A stretch of DNA of 64,000 bases from a virus, in the IMG/VR virus record IMGVR_UViG_3300039098_000035, positions 17,832-81,831 of that record. One strand, given 5' to 3'. Position numbers and translations under genes: made by a program. A model generated the notes under the pieces. It was given only the letters and a program-made list of their open reading frames with translations. It made no database searches and was not told where the DNA came from. Shown here piece by piece: positions 2,629 through 55,824 of this stretch; position 1 is the stretch's first letter; the number at the start of each line of letters is the position of its first letter.

Positions 2629-4656
2629 ATGCTTAAGTATTTAATATTTGATACAGAAACAACAGGCTTACATATAATATCTGATCGTCCATTCCTATTT
2701 CAGTATGGATTGGTTGATGAAAATTTAAACTTAGTATTAACAAAAGTGTTCCGCCCTAATAATGTTGCTGACTTAGCAACATTTATAACATATTTAGATT
2801 CAGTTGAAGTGTTAGTAGGAGCTAATATTAAATTCGATGTTAATCAAACTATTAACATAGGTGTACCTGCAAATGTCTTTAAAGATAAACATTACATAGA
2901 CACTGCTGTCCTTGCACGTTTAGTAATATCTCATGATACACAAAAGGACAAGACTTTTTCAGTAGCCTTAAAGAAATTAGCTCAGCGATACCTTAACATA
3001 GACGCCGCTGATGAAGAGCGTAAGCTTAAAGCAGAGCTTAGTAAGTTAACGATGGCACACAAAGCATTAATGAAAGAGCACTATATAAACCAAGGTGTAT
3101 GGGACACTACATTGAAAGCCCGTGAGCAAACACAAATCATCAATGAGGTATATAATAAATGGAATAAAGTATTCCATAAATACCCACGATTGAAACAACC
3201 TCGTAAGACTTTCCTTGCACATAACCGTACACCTAATTATTCTGATGTGGCTAACATTGAGACTTATGGTAGAAAAGATATAACATTAACACATGGTTTA
3301 CTTAAATTATTTTATCCTGATGTAATTAGGTTACAACAAATTCCTGCGTTTATAAGAACAAGTGCAGCTACATATCCTTTAATAGATATGGAACGTGCTG
3401 GTTTAACAGTAGATGTACAACGTCTCTTACAAGACAGAGCTATGATAGTTAAAGAACAAGCAGTAACACATATCATAGATCCTCGTACTAACACAAGGTT
3501 AAACATTGGTCAACACGCTAAACTTAGAGCACTCTATGAGTATGAATCAGGTATGCTTCTTACAAGTGCTGATAAAGAAACGCGTGCACGCATAGAAGCT
3601 AAGTCACCTGCAGCTAAAGCAGCTAATTATTTAGCTAAGATGGATAAGTATTTATCTACATATATTACAGGGATTCTTAATAAACTAACTAAGGTAGGAA
3701 CAGAGTATAATGTATACACTCAATACAATCTAGCCGGTACGATAACGGGTAGACTATCATCAGACTTCCAACAATTTCCAAGAGACCCATTGGTATTAAA
3801 AAACGGGTATGAAGTTAACATACGCTCATGGTTTATAGTTCCTAAAAAATATAAGTATATGTTTTACTTTGACTATAGTCAGATGGAACTACGGCTTCAA
3901 TGTGAATGGACTAACATAGTAAACGGACAGCCTGATGAAAATATGGCACGTGCTTTTTATCCTTATCATTGTTATCGTATGGATAAAGGACAGTTAATAC
4001 CTTATAAAGGAGGTGTTAAGTGGGAGCAATATACATGGTATCTTAATGAATGTGTTAATACATTGTGGAAACCTGTAGATTTACATGCCCTTACTACGAA
4101 AAATGCTTTTCCTGGTATAGATGAAACGCATCCTGATTGGAAACATTACAGAGGGTTGGGTAAACGTACTAACTTTGCAGTAAACTATGGAGCATCAGCA
4201 CCTAGAATAGCTCAAGCATTGCATGTAGATTTACCTACAGCTAGAGCTTTAGTTAAAGGATATAGAGATGCATTTCAAGGTGTAGTTAAATTTGGTAAGT
4301 GGTTACAAAACAGATGCTATGTTACTACTAGTATACCTAACTTATTATTTAGACGTTACTACTCACGTAACAAACATCTTATGCAGAACTGGTTAGTTCA
4401 AGGTAGTGGAGCAGACATACTGTTAGAAAAAATTAAAGAAGTGTGGGACTACATACAAGACAAACCTCATTGGAAATTATTCTTATCCGTCCATGATGAG
4501 TTAGGTTTATATTGTAAAGACATACCTCAAGCACAGCTTAAGAAAGAAGTAGAAGAACTTAAACAAGTTATGATGTATCGTCTATCAGCTGTAGATATTA
4601 CAGTAGACGTAGAGTATACAACAACTAAATGGTCTGAGAAAAAGGAGTGGAAATAA
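2629..4656 (+). CDS. polA: DNA polymerase family A with 3'-5' exonuclease
   Basis: ExoI FDTETTGL, ExoII NIKFD, TGRLSS, motif A FDYSQMELR, motif B KRTNFAVNYG, VQGSGAD, motif C VHDE. Confidence 0.95.
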   Translation: MLKYLIFDTETTGLHIISDRPFLFQYGLVDENLNLVLTKVFRPNNVADLATFITYLDSVEVLVGANIKFDVNQTINIGVPANVFKDKHYIDTAVLARLVISHDTQKDKTFSVALKKLAQRYLNIDAADEERKLKAELSKLTMAHKALMKEHYINQGVWDTTLKAREQTQIINEVYNKWNKVFHKYPRLKQPRKTFLAHNRTPNYSDVANIETYGRKDITLTHGLLKLFYPDVIRLQQIPAFIRTSAATYPLIDMERAGLTVDVQRLLQDRAMIVKEQAVTHIIDPRTNTRLNIGQHAKLRALYEYESGMLLTSADKETRARIEAKSPAAKAANYLAKMDKYLSTYITGILNKLTKVGTEYNVYTQYNLAGTITGRLSSDFQQFPRDPLVLKNGYEVNIRSWFIVPKKYKYMFYFDYSQMELRLQCEWTNIVNGQPDENMARAFYPYHCYRMDKGQLIPYKGGVKWEQYTWYLNECVNTLWKPVDLHALTTKNAFPGIDETHPDWKHYRGLGKRTNFAVNYGASAPRIAQALHVDLPTARALVKGYRDAFQGVVKFGKWLQNRCYVTTSIPNLLFRRYYSRNKHLMQNWLVQGSGADILLEKIKEVWDYIQDKPHWKLFLSVHDELGLYCKDIPQAQLKKEVEELKQVMMYRLSAVDITVDVEYTTTKWSEKKEWK

Positions 4657-5072: not shown

Positions 5073-6021
5073 AATAATATTTAATGTAGCGCGTCATGAG
5101 TACCAGGTTAATGGTGTAATATATATGAGTACAACACAGCTTATGAAAAAGTATGGGTTGTCTGTAGACTATGGTACGATACCTGCAGCTGTATTAGCTA
5201 AGGCAGCGAAGAAAGGTAATGCAATACACAAAGCATTAGAAGAACATATCAAAGGAGATAAAACTATGATTGGTTTATTCGATGAGGTTAAACTCTTTGA
5301 TAGCTTTATTAAAGCTCGTGGTGTAGACTCTACATGTTTAGTGCCTGAAGAAATAATAGCAGATAATACTTATCAAGTAGCAGGTACTGTAGATTTACAA
5401 TACATAGATGGACAAGATGATGTACTTGCAGATTTTAAAACTACTTCCTCATTGCATATGGATGCAGTAGCGTGGCAGTTAAGCATATACAACTATATTA
5501 AATGTAAAGGAGATCTACTTGCATATTATTTTAAAAAATTAAAAGTCTTTCATTTTAATGGTGTACGTATGTATGTTAAAGATGTATACACCGTAGACTA
5601 TGATGCAGTGGTAGCGTTATTAGAAACACATAAGCGTAGAGATAAAACCTATACTTATATTAAACCTAATAAAGTAATCTTACCTACAGAAGAGGTATAC
5701 CTTAATCAAATTATGACAGAGATAAAGTTACATGAGGATGCTGTAATTAAACTTAAAGCAGAATCACTTATAATTTTAGAAAAAGTTAAAAAGAATTTTA
5801 TTAAACAAAAAGATTATGCATTTACTAACGGTGTAATAAACATTAAGTATACTGGTGCAATACATAGACGTAGTCTTAATCAAAGCAAAGCTAAGAAATT
5901 CATTACAGATAATGGGGGCATATTAGAAACATTTATGAACGAAACAATTAGTGCAGATAAAGCAACAGCTAAGCTGTGTAAACAAACAAGTCAAGATGGT
6001 GATCAAGATGCTATGCCCTGA
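5065..6021 (+). CDS. PD-(D/E)XK (Cas4/RecB-like) exonuclease
   Basis: HEY..., KGNAIHKALE, VAGTVDL, ADFKT, WQLSIY motifs; AGGAGG RBS. Confidence 0.85.
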   Translation: MSKIIFNVARHEYQVNGVIYMSTTQLMKKYGLSVDYGTIPAAVLAKAAKKGNAIHKALEEHIKGDKTMIGLFDEVKLFDSFIKARGVDSTCLVPEEIIADNTYQVAGTVDLQYIDGQDDVLADFKTTSSLHMDAVAWQLSIYNYIKCKGDLLAYYFKKLKVFHFNGVRMYVKDVYTVDYDAVVALLETHKRRDKTYTYIKPNKVILPTEEVYLNQIMTEIKLHEDAVIKLKAESLIILEKVKKNFIKQKDYAFTNGVINIKYTGAIHRRSLNQSKAKKFITDNGGILETFMNETISADKATAKLCKQTSQDGDQDAMP

Positions 6022-6090
6022 TGATATGATAACACAAGATGTTATGTTAGACGCAATAGAAAAAATGAAAAAACAATTAAGGAGATAACT

Positions 6091-6387
6091 ATGGACAACC
6101 CTAAAGGCTATATGAATGCAGTACATGTATTCGGACGCAGCATGATGGGAAGACTTGGACAGACGCGTCACTTGCAATGGCAGTGGCGCAACAAGTCTAA
6201 ACCCTTACAAACAATATCACTTACAAAGAAACAGTATGATGATATTAAAAAATTATTAGGTCCTATAGATAGTAAAGCGGTAAATACTTTAACAGAGTAC
6301 AGTAATAGTATCCGTATATACCATACACATACTGCTAAATATTATATGAGAGTAAAAAGATACATAAAGAAAGAAGGTTTAATATGA
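6091..6387 (+). CDS. Hypothetical basic protein
   Basis: 98-aa ORF with AAGGAG RBS; ATGA overlap with the next gene. Confidence 0.65.
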   Translation: MDNPKGYMNAVHVFGRSMMGRLGQTRHLQWQWRNKSKPLQTISLTKKQYDDIKKLLGPIDSKAVNTLTEYSNSIRIYHTHTAKYYMRVKRYIKKEGLI

Positions 6388-8675: not shown

Positions 8676-8720
8676 ATAAATAACCCCTTACTCTTATGAG
8701 TAGGGGGTTTATTTTTTTTT
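8676..8720. terminator. Intrinsic terminator between the convergent replication and virion modules
   Basis: Hairpin AACCCCTTACTC-TTAT-GAGTAGGGGGTT followed by a long T run on + and preceded by an A-rich tract. Confidence 0.85.
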
Positions 8721-11700
8721 ATCTCATTGCTTGTGACTGACGATGACGTACGTACTGTTTCCATTGTATGTCTTTAACTAATCCTATTGGATCTACCTTA
8801 GGTTGTCGCATACGTCCGTACTTATTAAACCAGTTCTTATATATATTTTCATATCGTTTGTATCTACCGTTATTGTTTCTATACTTATAAGGAGTGTATT
8901 TATTGTTTCCTTCACTGTAATTATATAAGAAGTTAAACGTATTTCCTAGTGTACGTTCTCTCTGTTGTACAGGTTTACGTACCCCAGGAGTAGGTGGTGT
9001 TACATTACGAGGCCCTAGTGTATTAGCTGACCTTGTAAGTACGCCTACTGTAGCTAAATTCTTCATAGCTTCTCCTACATCTTTAGTTGTTGCTAATGTG
9101 TGCAGAGATCTAAGTATTGGATTACGTCTTTGTTCTATAGTAGCTGCAGTGTTATTGAGAATGTTCTGTACATCGTATAGTCCAAATCCTAAACGAAGTC
9201 CTACGCCTCCTCCTACAGGTAGCCAACCATTCATAATTTGAAACTGTTCATACTGATCATATTGTCCATCTTCATCTGCATATTGTCCATATACGCCATC
9301 AACTATATCACTGATTAATCTATTGTATGATGGATCAAGCATTCTATCTAACCAGTTATCAACTGTACGTATTGGGAAAGATAGGTATGGTATATCTGCA
9401 AGTAGCTGTGTTTCTACAGGTGTACGTTGTCCATAATTAAACCAACGTTTTAAAGATCTGTTAACTGTTTCATTAAAAGAGTATCCATATAGGTATCTAT
9501 CAAATAGAAACCCACCTATACGTGCAGTATTTTCAATGGTCTCATTCATGTTCGCGTATAATTTATAAGGTTGGAATGCAAGTTCAGCTAATTTATTTTC
9601 AAAAGTACGTGAAGCATCGTTAACTTCTTTTGAAACTTCTTCATATGTTTTATCTGTTGTATTGTTGAAGTTGTCTGATACACGTTTCTCTACAATACGT
9701 CTTAAGTATGTGTAGTGTTCTTGTTTGTATGTATCTATCTGTGCATTTGTTTGCATGAATGCAGAAATTTCAAATAGAATATGTTCTACATCATTGTATA
9801 TTGGTTTATCTTTTTTACCTTTGTCTTTGTTATATTTTTCCATCCATTTTTTTATACGTTTACGGGGTTTGTTTGGTGTGCTAGGGTCGAACATTAAGGA
9901 ATCATGTAGTGTTAAGTATTCTGCAAAGTTAATGTTAAGTATAAATGCAGCACTGTCTTTAATATCTTTACGTCCATCTAATACTTGTAGTTTTTCTTTA
10001 GCTTTAAACCTAAATGTAGGGTCTTCTATTTTCTCAATTTCTTTTAAGTTTTTAAATCCAACAATATCTTTAACTACAAAATTCATAAGAGTGTCTAAAC
10101 TTTTTAATACTTTAGTAGCTCTGTCAGACCTGTGCTTAATACGCGATTTAACATTGTTGAGTTTTTTAACACCTTCAGTGTAGCTGTATATTCTATTGCG
10201 AATATCTACTAAATTTTTAACTAATGTAATAGCATCATTGTGGGTAATACTACCGTGGTTGTTTTTAATACGAGTAAATACTTGTTGCATTTCTTCAAAT
10301 TTACTTTTGATATCTATCTGTACTGTTAATCTTTCTTCATATACATCTTGGTAAAGTTTATATAGTTGTCCAGTAAGCCCTGTAATTCTAAGTATTTCTG
10401 GAGCTTTTGTTATGGTACCGTATAATCCTTCTTGGGTGTATAGTTCACTGTATATTTGTGTCCATGTATCCATGTAGTTACGGAACAGAAAGCCTAGTGA
10501 TAGTCTCATCATAAGTTTTTGAGAATACTGTAACGAAGATACTAAATCAGGTATCATACCTTTACCTTCTAATCTTGCAGGTTTGTATGCAATATCATAT
10601 GAACTCATAAAATCATCTAAGGTTACAAATCCTATACTTAATTCTTCTGTTGTATTATTATTCTTCATATGATCTTCCATCATCTTTAATACTCTAGCAA
10701 AATCTTCAGGAGTTTTAATATTAATTTCTTTTAATGTAGGTGACACATCATCTTTAAAATCTATACCGTTAAGGTCTACTGTTTTATAACGCTTACCGTT
10801 AATTTTAATACCGTCTTCTTTAGTTATACCTTTGTTTAAATCTTTCACATACTTTATAATGTCTTCAAACGAATCGAAGCGAGTAGTTTTTCTATGTTTA
10901 TATATATTCCAAGGCATCATCTTAGCCCAGTTAGATTTGTTATCATACTCTGTAATGTTTTTCCTTAGTTGATCTCCAAGATTTCTTACTAAAGTTTCAT
11001 TATCATAGGCATCCATTACCACTGTTAACCTTAAGAACTTTCGGTTTCCTCTGTAGTAATCGAATAATTTATCCCAGTCATAGGTGTCGTCATCGTTTTT
11101 AAACAATGAAGCCATTGTTAAGAATGGTGTTTGATACTTTTGCATGTTCATTAAGTTTGTATCTTTAATTTTTTGTACATCTTTACTGGTAAACTCTGGG
11201 TCATCTCCTATATATTTAGGTGCGTTTTCATAAAGATCGAATATAGTTCTACCTTTAGGGTCGTGTAGTAGGAACGTACCTTTACTGAAACTTTTACTGA
11301 ATGCTGCTTTAGCTGTAATCTCTTTCATCTTTTTAATCTTACTTCTAACTTCTTTTTCTTTAGCGTTAAGGTCAGCTATGTGTTTAGTAACGTCTTTATT
11401 TTTATCAATGTAAGCTATAGCTTTGTCTTTATGTGTAACGTCATCTTTGATGTGTATTATTTTACCACGTATGTTAAGTAATTCTGCTGATAATTCTTTT
11501 AACTCTTGCTCATTTTGTTTATACATAGTATATGCTGTCGTTATTTCTCTTATTGAATTTCCTACATTATGATAACTAAATTTATTACGGTTAGCTATTT
11601 TAATTTTGATATCGTTAGATGATAACTTTTTAATTCCGTCATCATATTGCTCTGCTTTGTCACCATGTATAGAGCGTAGTGTGCTGAACTCTGTCTTAAC

Positions 11701-14700
11701 ATTCTCAAGCAAGTCATCTAATGTCTCTTGGTTACGTATACTTTTAATACCTTTTTCTTCTAGGTATGTAGTAAATAATTTCTGTTCTAATGGTGTACTT
11801 TCGTTATACATTTTAGTATAGTTAGCTACGTTATTACGGGCATCACTACCTGTGCTTAGGTTGGATAACATTTCTTGTGAGTAATGTGCAGGTACTTTTA
11901 TACTGTTATTACTTACTGTATTAGTTTTTCTAGTTACATTACCTTCAAGATCCATAGTTAAATATTCGTAGTCTACATCTTTATTGTTTAATAGAAAATC
12001 TTTAGCTGCTTGGTGTTCATCCCCAAGTAATGCATCTAATCTAGTACGTTCATGTTTGCTTTTAAGCGTAATTAACTGTGCAAATAATCCATATCCTTTA
12101 GCTATAAATGGAATCTTATCTTTAGATAATGCAGCATGGTTTGTTAAATGGTACGTATCGTTAACACTACGGTATAGACTATATGATGTAGTAAGTACTC
12201 TAAGTACTCTATATGCAGGTATGTTATATGTTAACAACGTCTGCATGTATTCATTAACTGTCTTAACTGTACCTCTTACCTTAATTTTTTTGTCCAAGAT
12301 TTGTTTGATAGGTAGCTCAGCATTGAATGCTTTAGTAATTGCTTCAAGTACATCGGATACTTCATAATATATACTGTCAGCAAAATGGGCATCATTAAAG
12401 AACTCAGCCTTAGCGTATTCATTAATACGTTTAGTTAAGTTTATTCTTGCATCAGTTTCATTGTTGTAATAATCTTTACGTTGTGTGTTAGACATATCTT
12501 TATTCAATGCCTCACGTCTAGCTTTAACAACTTCATCTGATATACGTACACCATTTTTTTCAAATGGATTTGAATCCATAGCTATTGCTAATGACCTTGA
12601 ATGGTTTCTATCTACACCTGTTGTAACTTTACGTATACTTTCTTCAGCAGTTTTCGCCCCTACTTTTTTATTATAGTTGTTATAGAATACAGTCTTATCG
12701 ATGTCACGTCCAGCATGTTTAGCTAGACCAATGATAGTACTTGCATCCTCTGATTGTACCCCTAATTTTCTACGATCAATAATAATTTGATCGAGATAGT
12801 TGTCCCCTGCTTTTTTAATAAATTTTTTAACATTTTTATCTTTAGTAAAATTTTCAGCAACCTTAATGTTCTTACCAAAGTAAAATACATCGATGAACAT
12901 TTTATCTGATTCAGATAATGTAACGGTGCCATGGTCCTTATGGTCTTCAGTTATCTTTTCTAACATGTCCTTGTAGAATACATTTAGATCTTTAGGGTAG
13001 TACTTGTTGAAGTGTGCTACTATACCTATCTGATCTGTGCTGTCGTATACATCTTTAAGACTTGTAAGTTCTTCTGTTACTCTAACAGATTCATTGATAG
13101 TGGTGTGGATATCTCCTAATACTTTAATCATATCATCTGCCCACATATCTTTGTATGTTTCAGTGTTGCCACTGGTGTAGTAGTCTGCTATGTTTCCTAT
13201 TTCTTTCTTAGCTAATGATATAAACTTAGACTTGTTCATCTTCTTAGCTTTGGCTATATGCTTAGCACTTAATAGTTTTGTTACTAACGATCTAGTAGTT
13301 AAGTTACCATTACTACCTCTAAATGGATCCCATACATTACCCTCAGGGTCTCTATTCAAGCTGTTGTATCTACTTAATATTGATGCAGCTACACGGTTCT
13401 TTCTGTTACCACCGAACAGGTTGATACCACGTTTAGATGTTTGGATACGTTCTACTGTACCAAGCACACTATCAGTGTATACCTTACTGTTTGCTACCTT
13501 AAGGAATAATTCCTTATACTTATCAGCATTAACCATGATGTTCTCTATACCAACCTCTCTAATTGTAGCATTGTCTGCTTTAGATAGGTGTAATGTTTGA
13601 TACTTAAAGTCTTCACTACTTACGTGCTTAGATATGTCATACTTACCTGCACCTACTAACTTATCAAATATATAATACTTCGATGCTATATCTAATATCT
13701 TACTGCGTTTAAACATAGCGGCAACCTTAGCAGGGTTGTCATAGTCTTCTATTTTAAACCCATCTATAGTATTGGCACCTTTTGTTAGCTTACGTATTGC
13801 TACGTTCAAGAAGAACTTTCTATTATCGTTGTTCCATTTAATGTTAGCTTTACTTACGTCAGCATCATCGATATCTTTTTGAATACTGTCGAACGTACTA
13901 CCGTAAATTTCTCCCCAAGTATAGTGCGTTCTAATTTCTTTAAACGTGTGCTTACCTACTGATGAGTAACGTAGATCTACATTGTCAAATGTTATACGCT
14001 TGTTACTTGTTTGCATTTTTTTATTAATTTTCTCTATGTACCCGTGATCATAGTAGTTATCTTCAGTAGCATCTAAGTTCTTAAACAAAGTTTTTTGTGT
14101 AACACCTGGTTCAATTTCTTTATGGCTATCCACTGCTAACATACCGATAGTATCACCATCATTATCTCCACCTATTAATTTGTATAGGTAAGCATTAGCT
14201 TCTACTGCATGGTGTGTATGGTACCCTATAACTTTAAGCATAGGTACTGCATTATAATCCTGTACTGGTGAACGTGCAGCTACAACCCAACCATACTTCT
14301 GTCCGAAGTTTTCAAATGTAAACACTCCATCTTTCTCAGTGTACATTGTGTGGTCTACGCCATTAATCTTGTCGTTCGTTACACCTATACTGTTAAGGTA
14401 ATCAATAAATTTTTTCTTATTCTTAACTGTTGCTGTAGTACCATCATTAGACACTAAGTCCTGTGCTTTAGCAGACTTAATATCGAATCCATTGATGAGC
14501 TTTTTCCATATGGTCTTGTCTACTTTACCATACTCTAAGAATCCACCTTTTAAATCTTGGAATGCTTCCCATCCATCTTTAGATGTACGTATTTCTCCTT
14601 GACCTAACCTTAAGTTAGCAAGTAACTGTTGACGTACACCATCATGTCTTCTATATATAGACTCATACATTACACCTGTGTTACCATGTATAATTTCAAG

Positions 14701-17700
14701 TGCTTTATTTCTTGCACGATTCTCCATCTCTTCTAACATAACTTCTATTTGTTCTATCTCTCTAGGGTCTTTAAGAGTTTCTAATTTATTTTTATACAGT
14801 AGATATGTTTCAATATCATCCACTAGTATATTATTGAATAGGTCTTTAATATTTCCTATGGTCTCTGCTACGTTGTACTCCCCCTTGGTATCTTTGACAC
14901 CATGTACTGCTAATACTTTTTTGAATCCATAGTGATAGATGTTAGAGTATGTGCTTAATCCTTTATAATCTCCACCTAACAAAGCTTTCTGCCAATCTAC
15001 ATCTTTAGTTTCCATTACATCTGTCACAGAAGGAGACATAGATACACCACCACGTACGCTACCTTTGATATCTTTAACTGATAGCTTAATTTCTCCTGCT
15101 TCAGTTAACTCTGTTTTAGTAGACATGTGATCGGCAGTATGATCGGCATCCATAATTACATACAGCCCACCTTTATACATGTTCATACCTTTAAAATTAT
15201 ATTCTCCTACACTATTAGGTTTACTTATGTCTACAAACTCTACTTTTAAATCTTCTTTAAATGTTATATCAATAAGGCTTCGCCATTTACCTTTAACACC
15301 TTTGAATAGTTCAGAAAGAACTACATCATAGTCAGTACCAGGATCTAGAATAAGTTTACCTTTAGTTACATTGAACATTTTCTTAAGTTTAGCATTGTAC
15401 TGTTTAAGTGCTGGTACTTTTTTAGCTCCCGTCATATGCATACGTATTGTATCTAATGCCTGGTCTAGCATAGCACCGTATGCGCCCCTTTCTTGGATAG
15501 AAGATTTACTACCTATTATAGATACACCGAATTTAGCTCTTAGTCCTTCTACATACTTAACTCCACCTTTGAATCCATATAAACCTAACCAAGTTTTATT
15601 ACCTTCATCCCAGCCTAATGCACGTGCATCTGCTGAATCTATTAGTAATGTATCTTCAAATGCATCAGGATGATCTATGAATCCTACTTGCAGATTAAGT
15701 CCTATCTTATGTAGTACGTCATCTTCATACATATCAAATTGTTTTTGAGTAAGGATGTTAGGTGTGTATGTATTAACTTGTTTAACTACCTTATCATCCT
15801 TGTATGTCTCTAATAATAGCTCAGTAAGTTTCTTTTTCTTTGTTCCTTTTTGTTTGTTTACGTAATCTGTTATGTGCTCCTCGAAAGTTTTAGAAGGATC
15901 AGCATCTTCTAAGACATATGTTTCATTAATTGCACCTATAGGTGTATAGTTTAAGTGCATCTTAGATAACGACAGTATACTACGTATCGCATTCGTATTG
16001 AATGTGTGTAATTTATCTGCGTTAGCTTGTGTTCTAATATTTGTTGCAGACCCTGCACTACCTTCAGCAGATAGCTCAAGGTTCATACCTAATTCATATG
16101 CACGTTTTGCTGTCCACTTAGCTATGTAGTTAGTAGAATAATCTGCAGGTATTAAGTTCAAATGTTTACCGGGATCGTTAGAAGAAAACTTAGACATAAC
16201 TGTATCCACTATACCACGGTATACTTTGTGTATATCTCCTGCATTTTCCTTACGCTTAGCGTATTGAATTACATCTAGGTAACTATAGAACCTATGACGT
16301 AATAACTTGCTTAGATCGTATTTAACAAGGCTTGTATCTTTCATGTCTTTATCATTAACAGTACCTTCAAGTGCAGCTTTCATAGCTTTAGCTTGGTCTG
16401 CTTCTTCTTTATAGTACTTGAATGCACCTTTCTTCTGCATACTCTTCAATGTTTCTACAAGTTTGTTGATTGATTCATACGCATCATCAATACCATTCTC
16501 AGTAAAGATATTTTCTTTTCTTAGTCCTGTAAGTCCGCGTACTGTCTTACCATCTTTGTCTTTATGGATGTATAATGTCTTCAATAATTTCTTAAGTTCG
16601 CTAGGTTTAATCTTACGCTCTATAACTAAAGGTTTTTTATATATTAAATCTGTATCAGTCTCAGTGTAGTAGTACGCAAGTTTAACCGTACCTTTTGTAG
16701 GGTACTTAGTGTTATATGTGTACTGTTGTACGTATGTATTACCAAACTTATCAGGTGGAGTAGGTACGGATACAGTAATAATGTTTCCATTATCTGTTTC
16801 ATGTACAGTGTTGAATACTACATCAGGATTTAATCCAATACCACTCTTGTTTATACCCTCATTGTAATCGTTGTATGCACGTTCAACACGTTTAACATTC
16901 ATGTCTTTAATAAATTGTTTATCTTTACGTTTAGTTGCTGCGGCTTTTAAACCTTCGTAATCTTCTATGGTTATATCGTTAGCTCTACCTTGTAGTATGT
17001 TAAAAATGTCTTCATATTCAATCTCTTTCTTAACATTTGATATAACTTCTACTTTACTTAGGATCTCATTAAATTTATTTGTAATACTCTTTAGTGATGC
17101 GTTGTAACTCTTATCATCACCAGGTGTTTTGTTTTTAAGTATATCTATACTATGTTCATAATGTGCTATGTCTTTTTGTATGGCTATAGCCACCATTGAT
17201 GATATGTTCCTAGTCTCTAGTTTACCTACAGTTGTGTCCTTAGTGTTAAGTACTTCTAATACTTTATGGATTCCTCCTGTTGTACTGGTATTAGTTAATA
17301 ATGTATTGAATACTGTGTTACCTTGCCATTTAGGCACTGCCGTTAATAGGCTGTCGTACATACCCTTAAGCTCCACTGTAATATCTTTATCAGTAAGATC
17401 GATCTTGTTGTTTGCTTTAGGTAAGAACCTATGTATGTATTTGTTCCAACTTTTTTGTAGGTCTTTTACACGGATGTCTTTTATAGTTTTTATATCCTTT
17501 ATAACATCTGTAAGTTTAGTTTCTAACAGCGTTGTAAGTTCCTTACTCACTGTGATGTCTGAACCTTTATTAATTTTAGTAACTAACTTAGACATATTAG
17601 TTATTTTGTCAGTGTATCCTTTGATAAGTTTATTGATTGCTGCCTCTGACTTAGCTTTAATTACTTCAGGCTCTAATGTTTTCTCAAGCATCGCCTTAAC

Positions 17701-20700
17701 TTTAGGACTTTCCAATACTTTCTTAACATCAGCTTCGTTATCGATGTCTGTAGTCTTAAGTATATTAGCAATCTCTGTTAGATCCTTGATAGCTATGTTC
17801 ATACCACGTACTTGCTCATCCATCTGCATTTGAATAAGTCCAAGGTTAGTTGTATGTGTACGGGCTAGGTCCCTTTTACTTATCTCAAGTGCAAGCTCTC
17901 TATTTACTGCTATGTTTACATCATATGTCATAGTATCTGTGAAGTTCTGTATAACTCTAGTAGCACGTTGGATATCTCTAATGTACTCTTCTTTAAGATT
18001 TTCAATGTCTACTATTTTTGTAGTGATTTCACTGATACGATCTTCAAGAACTACTGCAGTATCTAATAGATCTTTTTGTTCTGCTCTTAATTGTGTAGAT
18101 CGTTCACCAGGTGCACTAGATGCAGGACTTTTAAGATACTCTATGTGTTGTAGTATTTGTTTTAACTTAACTTCAAAGTTTGTTATCATCTTAGCTGGTG
18201 CTAGTGTAGAATTATTCTCTTTAGAAATACCGAGCGCATCATTAACAGTACCTACAACAGTGTTGTGGTAACTTTCATACGCTGTTTGTGTGTTGTAGTC
18301 TAGTATAGTTTCTACGCTTAGTATGTGTAGATATTCTTTCTCTGATTTTTCTAATAATTCTTCAGTAACCCACTTCTCTATCTCTTTATACTGCTCTAAT
18401 TTAGAGTGTATTGAGAACCCTTTTGTAAAGTATTGTACTAGCTCATGCTTGATACTTTCTTTACTTACAAGTGTATCTGCGTCTACATAATTAAAGAACA
18501 GTTCATTGATGTAGTCTATCTGTGAGTTAACCCCAGTAAATAACGCTTCTTTAACTTCTACGTTTTGTATAATACTTAGAGATTCTTGTGTATCCTTTAT
18601 AACTTTAAGAGACATTATCTTAAGTATTTCGCTATAGAACTTATCAATCATATCAAGTTCATTTGCTGTTACTTCCATACCTCTATTGTATTTCTTGCGT
18701 ACCTCTTGTATTGCTTTATGGTACTGCTCTATAAGCTTACGCTCTTTACCCATGTTAACTAGGTTATCTTTACTAGTCCAGTCTAATCCAGTAGCTCTTA
18801 GCTTAGCTTCTATGGTATCTGCATCCATACTGTTGATCGCTTTGTGGTACATGTTATTTAATAATGTGTTTGCTATACGCTGTATGAATTTATCATAGTA
18901 CACGAAGTCAAAGCTCTCACCATTGTGTGCAATGATAGGTGTATTCTTAGACGCTGCATTCATTTCATCTACAAATGTTTTAACAAATAGTAAGTCATTA
19001 CCTTGACCTTTAACTTTTTCAATAGTCATGGCTGTAATTGCATCTACATCTGCTCTTACTGCAGTAGGATTTTCCTTGATAGCTATTTTCCACTGTTGCT
19101 CATAGAAATCCTCAATTTGTTTTGATTTAGTTATTAGTATAGCTCCATCAGGTTGCATCAGTTCTTCTGTACCAGCTACAAACATTTGATTACTTATGTA
19201 TTGGTTGACGATTTTTATTACAGGGCTTCCCTTATGCATAACTTGTTTAACTAATGTCATTTGATATGGTGTAGGTACCCCGTAATTATTCTTAATTGTT
19301 TCCATATCTAAAACGATGAATGCTTCAGGTATTTTTCTACCTAGTTTTTTCATTTGTGCAACGTAGTTTAATCTTGTAATGATGGCATCCATGATAGGGT
19401 TATGTAATTCTACTTTGTTAGATACACTAGCATCCTTTATTAATTCTTCTAATGTTTCTTTACCACCCTTGAATAGTCCTGAAGTTCTATTGATAACATC
19501 TTGTAAAACTTGCTCTTTTATTAGGGCAACCTCTTCAGGTGTCTCGCCTTTCTTGAATCCATACAAGTTCATGTATGTACCGAGGTTACTATTACTGTGA
19601 GGTTTCTCAAGTAAACGTGCTTCAACTAGTTTATCATATGAATCTTTATACCCCTGTGCTTCCACACTAAGTTCATCAATTTCTCCTTGAATTTTCTCAG
19701 TCTTAGCTATGTTACCTTTAGTGTATGTATAGTAACTTGCTTGTCTAAGTCTTGCTTTATCTTTAAGAACTTTAGCTTCTTTAATTTTTGTGCGACTGGC
19801 TACTAGTGTTTCATTCATAGTTTCGATGTCACTATCAGAGAGGTATGTTACTACATCCATAGTATTTATAGTAGGATTATCTATTTTAATTTCATTAGAC
19901 GCTTCCATCAATAATTTCTTAACTGATGTAGGCTTCGCTTTATCTAAGGCTTCTACTATTTTATTATTATTCTCCAGTGCTGCACGTGTTTTACTTATAT
20001 TAGCTTTAAGTTTCTCTAACGATACTACATCTTTCCTAACTTTAGCATTGTGTACTTTATCAATACTAAAGTCTAAACGCCCATCAATGTATGTATCTAC
20101 ATCTGTAGGAAGTTCTTCTGATTTAGTGTATGTATACCCTGGCTTGTACTTAATCATGTTGTTTAAATCTTTAACAGTCTTAGCAAGGAGGGTACTTGTT
20201 TTAAGATGCTTGCTTTTCTTAATAGCATTCTCTCTTAAGCTATTAGCTTTCATATCTGATAATTTAGAACGTTCGATCTTCATCTTACTTGCGAATGTAT
20301 CAACCGCTATGTTCGCATGTACTTTAATAAGTTTAGTCTTATATTCATCTTCATGTTTCTCCATGTCAGGTTTAGGTGTACGAATTAATGTTCTAGTACT
20401 TGCTTGTAATGCCAACACTTTAGCATCTATTATGTTTTCATAGGCAGCACCATCCATAGTTATACCTGCTAATAATTTCAATGAAGCATATTGTGAATCT
20501 AGCTGAGCTTCAACACGATCTTTAAATTTAGTAGTAGTTTCCAATATCTCTGTGATATCCCTCTTAGTTAGCTTGCCTACAGTTTCTGTTTCAAATACAT
20601 TTTTTTTAGCCGTAGTAATATTATCTTTGTATTTTTTATCTATGCTGTATATGAATCTATTTATAATTGCGAATTGGTTTTTATCTAATGTTGCACCTTT

Positions 20701-31548: not shown

Positions 31549-31590
31549 AGTATACCATAAAAAAACCACCCTTTCAAAGAGTGGTTTTAA
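31549..31590 (-). promoter_or_regulatory. Overlapping intrinsic terminator and sigmaA-type promoter for the giant gene
   Basis: On -: hairpin AAAACCACTC...GGGTGGTTTTTTT. TTGAAA (31577-31572), 17 nt, TATACT (31554-31549) with TG extension. Confidence 0.75.
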
Positions 31591-32005: not shown

Positions 32006-33838
32006 TTATTTAATGTTAGATAGTGGATCGTTTCCACTGTTTTCTAACACATTAGTCTCTAAACTAATTTTAACTTGTGCTACATCTGTACCGATCCAAG
32101 CTGTGCTTGAATGATTAGCTGTAAATACGTAAGGTACGCCTGCATAAAGCACAGTGTCTCCTATTACATAATCAACGTCAGTAGCGAATACTGGATAAAC
32201 ACCAGCACCATTAATGAATGGAGATAATGGTACGATAGTGTCAGAGTTGACACCGTCAACACGAAGGATCATTTCACCTGCAGTGTTTACTCTATTTGCA
32301 TCTGATGATGCTGCGTCAGGATTTAAATCATCCATTAACGTATACTCACCAGTTAAGAATTGGTCAGTTAACGCTGCAAGCTCAGCAAATTTAGGGATAC
32401 CATATGTAATACAGATTGCTTCAGGACGCTTAATAGCTAATCCAAAACCATCTACTTTAAATCCGATTGATTGACGTTGGTCTAAAGGATCCCCAACACC
32501 ACTTGAACCTAAAGGTTTGATAATCATTTGAGGGGCATCAGAGATACCATCTTGTGCTAATTTCAGCAATGCTTCCATACCGAATAAGATTCCTCTATGT
32601 ACAGGTAATTGCATAAATCCACCTGCATCTATTAATGCATTTACTGCAGCAATGTCAGCAGCTAAGAAAGTACCATCAGTTGTACCGAACGCAGAAGTTA
32701 ACGTACTATAACTAACAGTTCTTACACCGTTAACCATCGATACAGTTTTGGTAGATTTTCTTAAAACAACTTTACAAGTACCCGCAGCACCACCAACAGA
32801 TTCGCCAGTGTATACACAGTCTGTATCTTTAACAATAGTTTTAGTAGCTACAGGAATTTCCCACACAACGTGGTTTTCTACTGCAGTACCATCATCTAAG
32901 TACGAAGTACCTGAGCCAGTTACTTTTGCATGTACTCCACCTGATACAACTACTTCAAACTCTTCATGTACATCCATGTAATAAATAGTATCGCCAGATA
33001 CAGCGTACAATCTAATAACTTCAGTACCATCTGATTTCTCATATACTCCAGGGAACTCAGTGTCAGGATAAGCGAACTCATCTAACATTGTAGGAATAAA
33101 CATTAAATCAAACATTGGGAATGGTTCACCACTACCCCAAAGTTTTCCAGTAGTTTGTTCAAGAGCCATGTATTGCTTAACTCTAGGATCATCAATCAAA
33201 CCATTAATAAATTCTGTACTACAGATGTAGTTGAACTTACCACTGATAGGTTTTACTAACATTCTTTTCATTCTTGCAATTAAGAATCTTAAATCATCTA
33301 ACAATACTTCGTCACCAAATGCAAGATTAGCAAATGATTTAAAGTTTGCAAAGAATTCATTCGGTGATGCTAACCAAGTTTTTCTTGCATATAATTCTTT
33401 TGTTTGGTTGGCAAGGTCACCATAATGTAAAGATCTTTCTGCTACTATTTCTGATATTACAGATAAATTAATTTTATCAGTATACTCACTCCATCTACCG
33501 AACGAGAACACATTCCCAACTTCAATAGTTTCGTAAGCATGTTTATCTGGTGCTGGTGGTACTCCTTCACGCAATGGTCTAAGCGTTGGTGTCATACCAG
33601 CCCATCTACGGAATCTTGCAACTGTATCCCCTTTACGGATACTTAAATTTTCAGCATATTTTAAATGTACAAAGTTCTCTTCACCATATTTTAAAGTGTC
33701 AAGTAAGATTGTATTATAAAATTCGCCTGGTTCAAACGCGGCTCTGTATACGCCATCAGCATCATACAGCATACCTAATACAGTATTTACATTTTGCAAA
33801 TCATGTAAAGGTAGTAATTCGCCAGTGATTACAGCCAT
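32006..33838 (-). CDS. Major capsid protein, N4-gp56-type, with C-terminal carbohydrate-binding-like extension
   Basis: ARFRRW, LREGVPP, IIKPLGSSGVGDPLDQRQSIGFK (typical DPLxQRxxxGxK). C-terminal YVIGDTVLYAGVPY..HSS..W resembles CBM5/12. Confidence 0.85.
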   Translation of the reverse strand: MAVITGELLPLHDLQNVNTVLGMLYDADGVYRAAFEPGEFYNTILLDTLKYGEENFVHLKYAENLSIRKGDTVARFRRWAGMTPTLRPLREGVPPAPDKHAYETIEVGNVFSFGRWSEYTDKINLSVISEIVAERSLHYGDLANQTKELYARKTWLASPNEFFANFKSFANLAFGDEVLLDDLRFLIARMKRMLVKPISGKFNYICSTEFINGLIDDPRVKQYMALEQTTGKLWGSGEPFPMFDLMFIPTMLDEFAYPDTEFPGVYEKSDGTEVIRLYAVSGDTIYYMDVHEEFEVVVSGGVHAKVTGSGTSYLDDGTAVENHVVWEIPVATKTIVKDTDCVYTGESVGGAAGTCKVVLRKSTKTVSMVNGVRTVSYSTLTSAFGTTDGTFLAADIAAVNALIDAGGFMQLPVHRGILFGMEALLKLAQDGISDAPQMIIKPLGSSGVGDPLDQRQSIGFKVDGFGLAIKRPEAICITYGIPKFAELAALTDQFLTGEYTLMDDLNPDAASSDANRVNTAGEMILRVDGVNSDTIVPLSPFINGAGVYPVFATDVDYVIGDTVLYAGVPYVFTANHSSTAWIGTDVAQVKISLETNVLENSGNDPLSNIK

Positions 33839-34944: not shown

Positions 34945-35514
34945 CTATTCTAATATTTCTGTTAAAGGTATTTCATAATGAAATGTGTATGAGAAAAATA
35001 TAATCGTGACATCTTCAGGGTCTACAACATCTCCTAATGATGCTTGTATAGCTGTCCGTAGAGGGTCTTCTACCATGTTTAAGGTATACCCAGGAGTATC
35101 AATAACATATTGAAGGTTGAAATATATTCTAACTTCATAGTCATTGTTTGTGTCAATGTACATAATATGAGTGAACCCATGCTGTTCTAACAGCTGATAG
35201 ATAGGACTTTCAGCTGTTAGTATAGTATCGACTAAGTTCTCTCTATCTTCTAGTGCTTGTATTCTGGTCTCATGATCTTCGAGACGGGCTTCAGCGTCTT
35301 GCAGACGTGCTTCATGGTCTGCAATAGTTGCTTGTATCTCTACAATAAGTTCGGCTTCTGTCAGGCCTTCTTCAATTAAGTCATCTATTTTAGTAGAGCA
35401 ACTCTCAATCATTTGACAAGCGTCTAGCCACCACTGCATTTCTGTAGCGGTGTTTTCATCAGGTGCACACGCTGTCATAAAGAGGACCATAAGTAGTATT
35501 AATAATTTTTTCAT
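34945..35514 (-). CDS. Lipoprotein with coiled coil
   Basis: Signal MKKLLILLMVLFMTA-C (lipobox-like), heptads DHEARLQDAEARLEDHETRIQALE; TAATG coupling to the tail fibre. Confidence 0.75.
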   Translation of the reverse strand: MKKLLILLMVLFMTACAPDENTATEMQWWLDACQMIESCSTKIDDLIEEGLTEAELIVEIQATIADHEARLQDAEARLEDHETRIQALEDRENLVDTILTAESPIYQLLEQHGFTHIMYIDTNNDYEVRIYFNLQYVIDTPGYTLNMVEDPLRTAIQASLGDVVDPEDVTIIFFSYTFHYEIPLTEILE

Positions 35515-38500
35515 TATAAATCTTCTCCTTCTTCTTGTGTTATAAGCCCTTTAGATATTAGTAGTTCCACCATACGGTTGTGCTTATCTTCTAGTTTTTT
35601 AACTTTACTTTGTAAGTGTTTAATCATAACTGTTTTCAATGTGGCTATGTTATCTGTACGAATAGTGATGTCTTCTCTTTCATTTGTTCCATCACGGTCT
35701 GTAACTAATTCTCTAGATACCAACATTGCTAAAAGTACAGGATGGTCTTTAAGAATAATTTCAATTTCTTGTGCCATTACTCCAATCTTAAGGTCATCTG
35801 CTTCATCATCATTGTAATTGAAAGTATATATGTTAAGTTGTTCAAACAATAATTCAATCTGTCTAAACATAGTTCCGTCTTTGCCTTCAACATACCCTGC
35901 GATACTTGGGTTTATTTCTAAGTTATTATCTAATTGTATACGATTAATATCTTTCTTTCTAGTAATGTCTGATAAAGAATACTCAGCATTTCTATATACC
36001 CTATATGAGAATAAATATCCAAAATATTCTGTGGTACTTAGACCTAACATAAGTGCGGTGTTACTTGCATCTATATTAGCAGATACTGTAATACGTTGTG
36101 ATGGGGTGGTTCCTTCTATAAGACGTATCATCTCTACCCCACCTGCAGAGAACGCAAGTTGGTCTAATGAAGGGAAGAACATTCCTGTATCAGCGTCTCC
36201 ACTGAATCTATACGCAGGAGCAGTTAAAGTACCTTTAGTAGATGTCCGGAACTGCATTGTTTGCAGGTAAGTATTTGCCTGCATATATCCGTCTCCAAAT
36301 GTTACATTAGTTAAAGCTGTTTCAATCTTAGCTTCAGTTAAACTGTATTCTCCATCAGTTATTCCATAACCTGCTAAGGTAGTTGGTGTACCAGTTAAAC
36401 TACTGAATGCGCCATCGAAGGCATCAGTTATTCCATAACCTGCTAAGGTAGTCTGTGGCGTTTGATAATCAGTGTCAGCTACAAGAGGTGCTTGATAGTC
36501 TGTGCCCGCTACAAAGTTACCTTCGTGGAATATTTTATATTTATTTACACCCATAGACCATCCACCAACAAATAAATCATTAGTAGTGCCATCTAGTCCG
36601 AAGTGTAATGCGTAGTCTCCACCAACGTGGAATGTAATCATTGCATCTGTACTTGCAGTTGCTTGTTTAATTTGCAATGTATTTATTTCTGATGCTTGTG
36701 ACCCAAGCTGTCCAGCAGGTACAGTGAATACCGTTAACCCTGTGTCCGTTAAGTAGTCATCAGGATCGAAGTTATTTGCGTGCCACGCTGTATATCCTCC
36801 AATTTCTAATTCATCTGAGAAATAAAACACTTGCTCTGTTGCATCAAATTTTAAAAAGTGCGCTACAGCTGAAGCAACATCTCCAAAGAATACAACGGCG
36901 TTGTCATCACTTTGGTCGTAATTGATGTACAATGAATCATCAGCGATAATACTACCGCCAACATACAATATTCCTGTAGATGTTAAACGCATACGTTCTT
37001 CTATAGATGTACCGTCTCTAGTTTTAAATAGTAAATCAGTTGCAGTACTTGCAGGGTCATTAGTTCTATACGCTGTAATTTCTGCATAATTCTCACCTAC
37101 AACAGTGGTAGATAGTCTAAAGCCTATCGTTGCGTTGGAACCAACAGAAGCATAATTAGACCTTAATCGAAGTCCAGTCTCTCCTGAAGCGTTCACCAAC
37201 TCCAAGGAATTTTGTGGTGATGTAGTCCCTATACCTATTTTATCAGCAAAAGTAGTTTCTCCTGTTACAGCCCCACCTGTTAAAGGCAGAGCATAGTCAT
37301 CAAAATTACCCATATCTAATACTTCTAACCAGTCCATCCATGTTCCATTATTTTTACCACGTACTGCCATATGGCCTGTACGGAAATCTCCATATATTTC
37401 ATGTACCCAAGAACTTGAGTAAACTCCAGCATATAACCCACCATCTGTGTTACTAAAATTATCAAAATCTCCTGAAGGGAAACTGCTAGCATACCCTATT
37501 GTATTTCTTACAACATCATTAACAGGCATAGAGCCGCTATTATTGGTTGTAGTTAAATCAAGTAAATTTTGTACAGCTGCTTTATCCAACAAAGGTTGGA
37601 AGTAATTAGCAGCGTGTCCTTCTAAAGTTCCAGCGTCTAATTGAGTTCCTGTTTCAGAAATTTCAATAGTGTCAGTTCCAATACTTGTTACGTATGAAAT
37701 ACTTAAAGCATCCATCCATGCTACATTATCATCACCGCTGTGTCCTAATAACAGTTCTCTTACAGACACAATAGAATAATCCCATTCTTCTGTAGCATCT
37801 ACATCTCCTATATATATAACCCCATAGTTACTTGCATCTAAAGCAAAGTGTACTTGACGTGTAATATTCATTGCATCTGTTGATTCAAAGATTGCGAATG
37901 TGTTTGTCCATGAAGGAGCTGCGTGTAAATATCCACCTAATGTAACTGTGAAAGACGTATCATGAGCATAATTATAAACATCTACAACCATTCTAAGCAT
38001 TGTATTAGACTCTCCTTTTTGAGGAAGTTTAATTCTTATTGCTCCATCTATATTACTTACAGCTGTATTAAGAAGACCTCCTTTAGGATTAACTATTTTA
38101 CGTACTCCACCTTCATAAGAATATAAATGTGCATTTAACATACCAGCGATTGTTACATCTTCACTAACAACGATATTTCCACCAATTAATGCGTCTCCAC
38201 TTATATCTAAATCATATGTTGCACCTGGTACAGCTGTATCTGATGTACCATAACCGACTCTTAATGAGTGTGCTACTGTAAGTTTACCGCCTGTTGAAAG
38301 AGCCATAGCTCCTTGGCTTGTACTGTGGTTAGTATCTCTCCATAAAAAGCCACGATCAGCATCATCGTTAAATGTAAACGTCATGGCCCAGTCATTATTG
38401 ATTGCCCCAAAGGACAATCCACTAACCATACCTATACCATAATTATCGTCAGAATATACCCTGTATTTCATGTAGTTACTATCTGTATTATGTACAATTT

Positions 38501-54962: not shown

Positions 54963-55824
54963 ACTTAGCTTTCTTAGCGGCCTCTGCTAACATGTCTTTC
55001 ATAGACATACCGTCTTTGTTTACTCCAGCCCCTGGTACAGGTATTCCTGGGTTAGGCAGTGGTGCTTTACCTGCCGCAGCAGCAGCAGCATCCCACTCAG
55101 CTTTAGCAGCGGCTACAGCCGCAGTAATTTCAGTTTGTTTAATTTTATCGGCGTATATAATATTGTACAAATCGCCAAGACTTCCACCTTGGGCAATCCA
55201 CAAATAAGGATTTCTTTCAGTCTGCATAGCGTCTTTAAAGAAGTTATTAATATCAGCTTGTTTTAGAGTCTTATCAATTTGTAGATTGGTTAAAGCTTTG
55301 TCCATATCTATTTGTAGTCTTTGCTTTTGTATTTCAATTTTGTCTTTTTCAACTTGCTCAACAGCGGCTTGTACTTCAGGAGTTAACCCTGATGTAGTAG
55401 CTCTAGTAGCAACATCAACTGTTTCCATAGCTGTACTCAATGATTTGTAATCAATCCCAGTACCGTCTTCAAGCATATGGTCTACTAATTTAATATCCGT
55501 ATAAGTTCCAGTTGCAAATTTATTCATAGTCTTTGTGACTAATTCTTTAGCATCTTTAGCTATTTTTAACTGGTCTCTAACTTCTTTGATTGGGTTTGGC
55601 GTAGGTGTAGGCGCAGGTACAGCCGTAACCATTGCTTTACCTTCAGTATCAAATCCTGGTTTAAGAGGATCTTCTACCTGTTCTGCTGGAACAGGGTCCG
55701 CTGGAACAGGGTCCGCTGGAACAGGGTCCGCTGGAACAGGGTCCGCTGGAACAGGGTCCGCTGGAGGGTTACCTGCGGCTTGTGATAGCATTTCATTTAA
55801 TCCTAATTTTTCATCTTCAGGCAT
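54961..55824 (-). CDS. Putative capsid scaffolding protein
   Basis: Pro/acidic disordered N-terminus, coiled coil, Ala/Pro linker and short C-terminal helix, which is scaffold architecture; GAGGAG RBS. Confidence 0.6.
   Translation of the reverse strand: MPEDEKLGLNEMLSQAAGNPPADPVPADPVPADPVPADPVPADPVPAEQVEDPLKPGFDTEGKAMVTAVPAPTPTPNPIKEVRDQLKIAKDAKELVTKTMNKFATGTYTDIKLVDHMLEDGTGIDYKSLSTAMETVDVATRATTSGLTPEVQAAVEQVEKDKIEIQKQRLQIDMDKALTNLQIDKTLKQADINNFFKDAMQTERNPYLWIAQGGSLGDLYNIIYADKIKQTEITAAVAAAKAEWDAAAAAAGKAPLPNPGIPVPGAGVNKDGMSMKDMLAEAAKKAK
55685..55765. repeat. 15-bp tandem repeat x5 (PADPV)
   Basis: GCTGGAACAGGGTCC five exact copies plus a partial copy. Confidence 0.95.

Follow-up and report, generated by a model that had tools for sequence, protein, structure and literature searches.

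A predicted single-chain two-barrel RNA polymerase inside a 7,596-residue protein of a phage with an N4-type capsid gene

Results

The giant gene and its family

The subject of this work is a 64,000-nucleotide stretch of DNA from an uncultured virus (positions 17,832 to 81,831 of IMG/VR record IMGVR_UViG_3300039098_000035; hereafter the window, to which all coordinates refer unless stated) and, within it, a single giant gene whose product contains a candidate RNA polymerase. The record is one contig of 81,831 bases with a CheckV completeness of 81, no end repeats and a G+C content of about 34%. One public sequencing run, from a marine sediment metagenome, contains the record sequence and may be the source sample; no RNA run is listed. 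The expression signals are bacterial, with AAGGAG preceding the ATG of the giant gene by 9 nt. To our knowledge, its 7,596-aa product is among the longest phage proteins. The gene and the parts of its polymerase module are as follows, the module boundaries being those of the confidently modelled part in an AlphaFold2 model combined with a structure search.

8719-31509, minus strand: giant open reading frame (ORF), coding for 7,596 aa (coordinates include the stop codon), 27.9% of the 81,831-base record
12640-15948, minus strand: predicted RNA polymerase module, confidently modelled part, aa 5188-6290
15511-15807, minus strand: beta-type double-psi barrel (DPBB-B), aa 5235-5333
15652-15660, minus strand: FED, aa 5284-5286, within DPBB-B
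15568-15597, minus strand: invariant lysines K5305 and K5314, within DPBB-B
15010-15270, minus strand: beta-type C-terminal strands, with GxxYxxxD (G5447, Y5450, D5454) and G5488, then a low-confidence loop
14650-15009, minus strand: helical connector between the two barrels, aa 5501-5620
14131-14643, minus strand: beta'-type double-psi barrel (DPBB-A) with an insertion, aa 5623-5793; RQQLLA at aa 5626-5631
14260-14274, minus strand: RSPVQ, aa 5746-5750, within DPBB-A
14152-14166, minus strand: DNDGD, aa 5782-5786, within DPBB-A
13387-13515, minus strand: candidate bridge helix of 43 residues, aa 5999-6041 (model helix 899-941), with invariant R6021, K6026, G6033, R6036 and K6037
12643-12774, minus strand: candidate trigger-loop helices, aa 6246-6289 (model helices 1146-1189), with K6264 and H6265 invariant in 36/36 sequences

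A word-indexed search of 4,775 candidates recovered 21 homologues of the giant protein, 5,689-7,828 aa long and 26-50% identical in the polymerase region. A single-sequence scan of IMG/VR had returned no relatives; alignment-based scans later did find them. Searching the polymerase region by tblastn against 50,697 phage records gave no match. When the family profile was run exhaustively against 1.84 billion representatives, 56 proteins were returned at E <=0.001: 25 of 6,661-7,998 aa, 30 shorter pieces (42-2,662 aa) that mostly match from their first residues and appear to behave like truncated ORFs, and one protein of a different kind, P0067. Given this outcome, the family is small and closed, with full-length members of about 6,700-8,000 residues. 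In P0053 (1,829 aa) and P0054 (1,612 aa) the match is internal and confined to the final third of the polymerase profile (813-1141); both lack Pfam domains and may be remoter relatives that are built differently.

Catalytic motifs are invariant and collinear with those of E. coli

An earlier, sequence-only reading of the window had listed a series of RpoB- and RpoC-like motifs in this ORF. All of them are present in the translation of the one ORF, in the order it gave, between aa 5267 and 6267, and GGDNDGD is located at 14152-14172 as it had claimed. It had also proposed that the flap insertion is absent. The distance from FED (5284-5286) to K5305 is 18 residues, as against about 250 between FED (812-814) and GDK (1063-1065) in E. 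coli beta; therefore, that claim is correct.

A lone D.DGD motif is expected by chance 0.157 times in a protein of such length and composition, and one is found; hence, the motif on its own proves little. What goes beyond chance is the invariance of the surrounding residues in 36/36 sequences, the predicted fold, and the significant profile match to a beta' barrel certified by Pfam. Among the 36 full-length members, the residues identical in every sequence are D5286, D5291, K5305, G5312, K5314, G5315, R5341, G5447, D5454 and G5488 in the beta-type part; R5626, Q5628, R5746, P5748, Q5750, Y5776 and D5782-N-D-G-D5786 in the beta'-type part; and R6021, K6026, G6033, R6036, K6037, K6264 and H6265 in the downstream helices. 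In the same alignment, windowed identity to P0001 is mostly 15-30%. Along the whole chain, conservation across the 36 sequences peaks at aa 1-100, 300-600 and 4000-4300, in the polymerase region and at aa 6900-7596.

The order and spacing of the motifs are collinear with beta and beta' of E. coli (fetched K-12 record). In beta, FED 812, GDK 1063, GNKG 1071 and LNH 1235 correspond to FED 5284, GNK 5303, FKG 5313 and DADH 5454 of the giant protein; in beta', RQNLLG 339, NRAPTLH 424 and NADFDGD 458 correspond to RQQLLA 5626, RSPVQ 5746 and DNDGD 5782, and further on GARKGL 778 and HIGG 936 to GGNRK 6033 and KH 6264. K5305 and K5314, both invariant in the 36 sequences, are 9 residues apart, compared with 8 for K1065 and K1073 of E. 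coli beta. The beta-type C-terminal strands are collinear with LNHLVDDK (1235) and GGQRF (1266) of beta, to which they would be equivalent.

The predicted fold contains a beta-type and a beta'-type barrel

For modelling, the homologous stretch was cut from 21 loci (IMG/VR and metagenomes), of which 18 were aligned; L003, L012, L016 and L020 were dropped as near-duplicates of retained rows. With these 18 sequences and no templates, AlphaFold2 gave a model of aa 5101-6290 with a predicted local distance difference test score (pLDDT) of 81.1 and a predicted template modelling score (pTM) of 0.78. In a VIA search of 48,161 PDB representatives with the whole module, the top 21 rows are all two-barrel RNA polymerases, and rows 1-16 are large subunits of multisubunit RNA polymerases that fall into two clean groups. 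The largest subunits align to model residues 426-1190, among them 7ob9_A (12.5), 9mu7_A (12.5), vaccinia 6rfl_A (12.2), archaeal A' 2pmz_A (12.0, model 445-953) and M. tuberculosis beta' 6edt_D (11.1). The beta half modelled alone has a pLDDT of 83.8, and its search returns nine beta/Rpb2 chains scoring 10.2-12.2 before the scores drop to 5.8 for generic barrels.

The check that the sequence-only reading had suggested, a structure prediction with a structure comparison, returns two double-psi beta-barrels, one beta-type and one beta'-type, and both AlphaFold2 models and the structure searches agree on a single chain in which the beta-type barrel comes first. Downstream of the barrels, the alignment of 2pmz_A reaches model residue 953 (chain residue 858) and spans the long helix at aa 5999-6041, which would be the bridge helix, its G..RK being collinear with GARKGL 778 of E. 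coli beta'. Likewise, the largest-subunit alignments extend to model residues 1188-1190 and cover aa 6246-6289, the putative trigger-loop helices.

A sequence link to a beta' barrel, and searches that return nothing

The one sequence connection to a recognised polymerase family goes through P0067 (503 aa), the weakest significant match of the family profile search (E 3.6e-4 library-wide). This protein carries Pfam RNA_pol_Rpb1_2 above the cut-off (E 1.4e-12) and weakly resembles rpoC-annotated genes of large phages. Aligned with it by hhalign, the family gives a probability of 95.5 and E 1.6e-8 over 59 columns, with YGyVlA-RSPVQ...GaDNDGDT of the family set against YVMIIRSPVL...GADFDGDT of P0067.

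Sequence libraries return little else. Neither half of the giant protein matches a Pfam family at E <=0.1, and the sole PHROGs match of the halves is phrog_11175, of unknown function (E 0.0038). In the PDB, phmmer with aa 5000-6400 finds no match, and hmmsearch with the 18-sequence profile finds only a chance match, CENP-U, at E 1.9. Pfam RNA polymerase families match 0/18 members even at E up to 1, as does PF05183, the family of QDE-1-type RNA-dependent RNA polymerases. A six-frame search of the genome with PF00623 gives no match, its control being positive in 14/14 genomes; the corresponding PF00940 search also gives none, but as its control is positive in 0/14 genomes it is uninformative. 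A hidden Markov model (HMM) built from the 36 full-length proteins finds only noise among ORFs of at least 80 aa in the fetched N4, phi14:2 and E. coli rpoBC regions, and the family HMM has no match on N4 gp50, nor on gp50-gp53 as a set. With hhalign, phi14:2 gp66, used as a single sequence and not as a gp66 family profile, gives a probability of 0.2. When E. coli beta' is the target, the top local alignment falls on NADFDGD, at E 0.34. The earlier suggestion of a distinct lineage is supported by the Pfam result (0/18), by the lack of hhalign similarity to phi14:2 gp66 and by the lack of a profile match on N4 gp50.

Companion modules and the capsid gene

Besides the polymerase, the giant protein has three other conserved parts, and its gene is preceded by a capsid-like gene.

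18520-19422, minus strand: DEDD/DnaQ-like, exonuclease-like domain, aa 4030-4330; the polymerase module starts about 860 residues further on
8722-9762, minus strand: C-terminal domain, aa 7250-7596, where conservation within the protein is highest
29710-31509, minus strand: N-terminal region, aa 1-600, conserved; its two Gly/Ala-rich segments (aa 89-107 and 340-358) are moderately hydrophobic
31549-31588, minus strand: terminator-like hairpin (12 bp, T run) overlapping a sigma-70-like site, 40 nt before the ATG of the giant gene
32006-33838, minus strand: gene for a 610-aa N4-type major capsid-like protein (phrog_1357), upstream of the giant gene

Judged by its motifs, D4068-x-E4070 and H4195-N-G-x-x-F-D4201, the domain at aa 4030-4330 is a probable DEDD exonuclease. 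D4068, E4070, G4197 and D4201 are conserved in 36/36 sequences, and 33-35 of the 36 keep the other named motif residues; an ExoIII motif was not found. Two non-significant alignments of the second motif come from a PDB profile search, one to ExoII of family-B polymerases (E 0.03) and one to TREX1 (E about 0.6). Pfam DNA_pol_B_exo2 matches 1/11 members at this domain, and a protein-language-model look-up (Atlas) places it with RNase_T-bearing clusters at 0.90-0.91. At the C-terminus, aa 7301-7596 have a mean identity to P0001 of 52-54% across the 36 sequences, and the last ~300 residues match no family; by analogy with the C-terminal domain of N4 gp50, this domain might be a packaging or portal-contact signal. 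In the N-terminal region, only the segments at aa 89-107 and 340-358 exceed a Kyte-Doolittle mean of 1.6, so that membrane insertion is a weakly supported idea.

The 610-aa protein matches phrog_1357 at E 2.1e-9 over residues 76-223 only; the remainder may be an insertion or decoration domain. N4 gp56 belongs to the same group (E 4.2e-151), while the phi14:2 capsid protein belongs to phrog_11589. Hence, the N4-type capsid proposed by the sequence-only reading is supported, weakly but specifically, by a group common to the 610-aa protein and N4 gp56. In 5/5 IMG/VR relatives the capsid-like protein is 62-65% identical, compared with 24-37% for the polymerase region of the same relatives, and its gene adjoins the start of the giant gene, within about 2 kb at the loosest as calculated from coordinates. 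Lying on the same strand as the capsid gene, the giant gene closes the late/structural operon; the genes it converges on are those for replication (helicase, family-A DNA polymerase, exonuclease, topoisomerase-like). The same position and layout are seen in N4, from gp56 to gp50.

The terminase belongs to phrog_979, compared with phrog_38 in N4 and phrog_6681 in phi14:2; the nearest terminases are those of Paenibacillus phages API480 and SV21, at 29%, and none of 93 records in a tblastn search with the terminase belongs to the Crassvirales. API480, the nearest isolate by terminase and capsid gene, lacks the giant gene, its largest ORF being 4,896 nt. The source phage is, as judged from these sequences, neither a strict schitovirus nor a crassvirus.

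The sigma-70-like site ahead of the giant gene reads TTGAAA-17-TATACT with an extended TG (10/12 consensus); such sites are not enriched over shuffled sequences. Together with the overlapping hairpin, likewise a pattern match, it would fit a low-copy protein made late by the host polymerase. Where the giant gene and the replication genes converge, its stop codon is separated from them by a GC-rich hairpin (plus strand, 8682-8709; 12 bp, T run), which could be a shared terminator. A repeated k-mer search for candidate promoters of the phage polymerase, covering exact k-mers, returned coding repeats only, some inside the tail-fibre gene and one of 15 nt. A search of the genome for tRNA genes was negative.

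A second giant gene (35514-47183, minus strand; 3,889 aa) has tail-fibre PHROG matches (phrog_18345, E 1.9e-39) and contains 63-nt-periodic coding repeats at about 44824-45694 (genome 62655-63525). Five tandem 15-nt repeats (GCTGGAACAGGGTCC-like) lie at genome C1:73516-73594 (window ~55685-55763), within an ORF of the structural module, and may be a collagen-like Gly-X-Y coding repeat.

Discussion

A proposed packaged and ejected polymerase

We consider it likely that residues ~5188-6290 of the giant protein form a single-chain, two-barrel, DNA-dependent RNA polymerase of cellular type that is packaged and ejected by a phage with an N4-type capsid context. From the fold and the strict conservation of catalytic residues, we infer polymerase activity. 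In the mechanism that we propose, the compact beta-type barrel would supply the two lysines that contact substrate or RNA, a helical connector would link it to the beta'-type barrel, and the DNDGD loop of the latter would bind the catalytic Mg2+, with the bridge helix and a trigger-loop-like element coming after. The giant protein would be packaged in the head and its chain threaded through the tail as beads-on-a-string, as has been proposed for N4 gp50 (PMC13434306) and for crAss cargo proteins, the N-terminal, exonuclease-like and C-terminal modules travelling with the polymerase. Once ejected, the polymerase module would transcribe the first phage genes without host sigma, and the host polymerase would take over later. 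What suggests packaging and tail threading is the place of the gene: it closes its operon directly behind an N4-type capsid gene and, like N4 gene 50, is convergent with the replication genes. Like a few other phage groups, the phage thus probably brings its own transcription enzyme into the host.

Several points weigh against this interpretation. Packaging and ejection are read from genome context, and the sigma-70-like sites in the genome mean that the host polymerase may do much of the transcription. The models were built from shallow alignments of 16-18 sequences; beta is represented only by its C-terminal part, and no equivalent of the lobe or protrusion was identified. The domain is recognised by no sequence library (Pfam, PHROGs, PDB phmmer/hmmsearch), the sequence link depends on one protein and 59 columns, and hhalign finds no significant similarity between the family profile and E. 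coli beta or beta', each taken as a single sequence. Finally, the Atlas look-up of the polymerase returns phage clusters with PF05183 (0.90 and 0.89, recognition being below the reliability mark), which conflicts with a placement among multisubunit-type enzymes.

Of the competing explanations, the one that survives best, although we think it unlikely, accepts a real two-barrel polymerase that is not a virion protein: it would be made early or late in the cell, or be part of a transcription or replication factory, with its adjacency to the capsid gene being incidental. The giant gene does have a promoter-like site of its own, packaging is read from gene context, and nowhere does the giant protein match a known internal or ejection protein, either with the 36-sequence profile against ORFs of the fetched N4 and phi14:2 regions or in PHROGs. 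Against this stand the N4-like synteny and the position of the gene, which ends the structural operon and, in 5/5 relatives, directly follows the capsid gene on the same strand, as fits cargo and ejection proteins. Furthermore, a 7,596-aa carrier of the only RNA polymerase domain detected in the phage fits the polyproteins described for crAss-like phages (bioRxiv 10.1101/2020.03.07.982082).

Placement among two-barrel polymerases

According to Chaban et al. 2024 (PMC10770324), two-barrel polymerases form two clades, one of multisubunit enzymes and some fused derivatives, and the other of phage/plasmid single-subunit enzymes and RNAi polymerases. The beta-half search, the P0067 link and the glycine of DNDGD (phi14:2 gp66 is reported to have DFDID; bioRxiv 10.1101/2020.03.07.982082) together place the present family nearer the multisubunit clade. 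In the models, the beta half appears to resemble multisubunit beta/Rpb2 far more than QDE-1 or crAss-type enzymes, and by its predicted fold the enzyme would be a fused, pared-down derivative of the multisubunit beta/beta' type and not a relative of the crAss, QDE-1 or T7/N4 enzymes. The sequence-only reading had named YonO, crAss and QDE-1 among its comparators; the two-barrel class that it proposed is supported, but the predicted fold appears closer to multisubunit beta/beta' than to any of the three.

The opposite placement, as a very diverged single-subunit polymerase of the crAss/YonO/QDE-1 clade whose multisubunit-like scores are an artefact of large, well-ordered comparison subunits, seems to us improbable. 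It is the Atlas look-up that conflicts with our placement; PF05183 itself matches none of the 18 members, gp66 is not recognised by hhalign, and the one significant match at the sequence level is to a protein of beta' type (Rpb1 domain 2). Nine beta/Rpb2 chains head the beta-half search, and QDE-1, RDR2, gp66 and P74 gp62 are not among its 50 best rows, an absence that does not exclude similarity. The capsid and terminase PHROGs also differ from those of phi14:2.

Compared with multisubunit beta/beta' (Rpb2/Rpb1) enzymes, including the split non-virion RNA polymerases of AR9 and phiKZ, which consist of two to four chains, the giant protein is one chain, with no flap-sized insertion and no recognised beta N-terminal half; it stays below the Pfam RNA polymerase thresholds, and its polymerase module is embedded from residue ~5188 of a 7,596-aa protein. 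N4 gp50 is a T7-like, right-hand single-subunit enzyme. The giant protein differs from it in being two-barrel by predicted fold, twice as long and without profile similarity to gp50-gp53; in common they have the proposed logic of a giant, multi-domain ejected enzyme, the N4 virion polymerase being described as expelled with the ejection proteins and built as beads-on-a-string (PMC13434306). In the crAss-like phages, phi14:2 gp66 (PDB 6VR4) is likewise a single-chain two-barrel polymerase, housed in a virion-module protein of very large size whose gene ends the structural operon. Both genomes are ~80-100 kb and the working model is the same, ejection with the DNA followed by early transcription.

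We know of no solved YonO structure. YonO of SPbeta, compared here by description only, is like the giant-protein polymerase a single chain without multisubunit regulatory domains; it is ~100 kDa, free-standing and, in the account consulted, without detectable trigger-loop homology, whereas the giant protein has an invariant K-H at the expected trigger-loop site (PMC5467207). In the same account the flap is regarded as something that multisubunit enzymes acquired later for regulation, so that its absence does not set the enzyme described here apart.

The Thermus phage P23-45 gp96 (PDB 8H2M/8H2N) is also a two-barrel polymerase fused into a giant virion protein, in that case a tape-measure-fused virion polymerase proposed to act during DNA entry (PMC10770324). 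It is conceivable, but quite improbable in our estimate, that the giant protein is likewise a polymerase-fused tape measure of a very long-tailed phage and not an internal head protein of a short-tailed one. Least probable of all is that the barrels are a structural relic or serve another enzyme, such as a PolD-like DNA polymerase or a primase: a common fold is no proof of function, PolD likewise uses two double-psi barrels (PMC10770324) and an exonuclease-like domain lies in the same chain, but all catalytic hallmarks are invariant in 36/36 sequences despite 20-30% overall identity, the top 21 structure rows are RNA polymerases with no PolD chain among the 50 best for the whole model (which does not exclude similarity), and the phage encodes its own family-A DNA polymerase (phrog_17, E 1.6e-60).

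Implications

A two-barrel polymerase hidden in a giant virion-module protein is a kind already known from crAss-like phages, in which homologues of gp65-67 are sometimes fused into one huge polyprotein (bioRxiv 10.1101/2020.03.07.982082), and from P23-45. New with respect to the literature searched are the family itself, its beta/beta'-like character, the N4-type capsid context, the size and the exonuclease companion. No description of the family was found in that literature; the 23 two-barrel family alignments in the supplement of Chaban et al. lay outside the search and may include it.

Virion-delivered RNA polymerases are known in three designs: T7-like in N4, single-chain two-barrel in crAss-like phages and P23-45, and multisubunit in phiKZ-type phages. 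A single chain with a multisubunit-looking beta half, in phages with an N4-type capsid gene, would be a fourth combination. One possible history, which we put forward tentatively and hold to be less likely than the packaged polymerase itself, is an independent origin of a virion RNA polymerase, in which a lineage bearing an N4-type capsid gave up the T7-like enzyme for another, or had none to begin with, and fused a pared-down multisubunit-type beta-beta' core, a DEDD exonuclease and ejection machinery into one 7,596-residue tail-threading chain, a combined ejectosome and transcription machine. If this is true, the pairing of exonuclease and polymerase would be functional, for example in making the end of the entering DNA single-stranded so that a template or promoter is exposed, or in proofreading.

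Because Pfam, PHROGs and PDB sequence searches all miss the family, current annotation leaves these phages without a polymerase. The flapless beta-beta' core of ~1,100 residues could serve as a minimal system for studying what the cellular enzyme needs for catalysis, and a chain of ~870 kDa (a rough value from its length) would be a test case for packaging and for passage through the tail.

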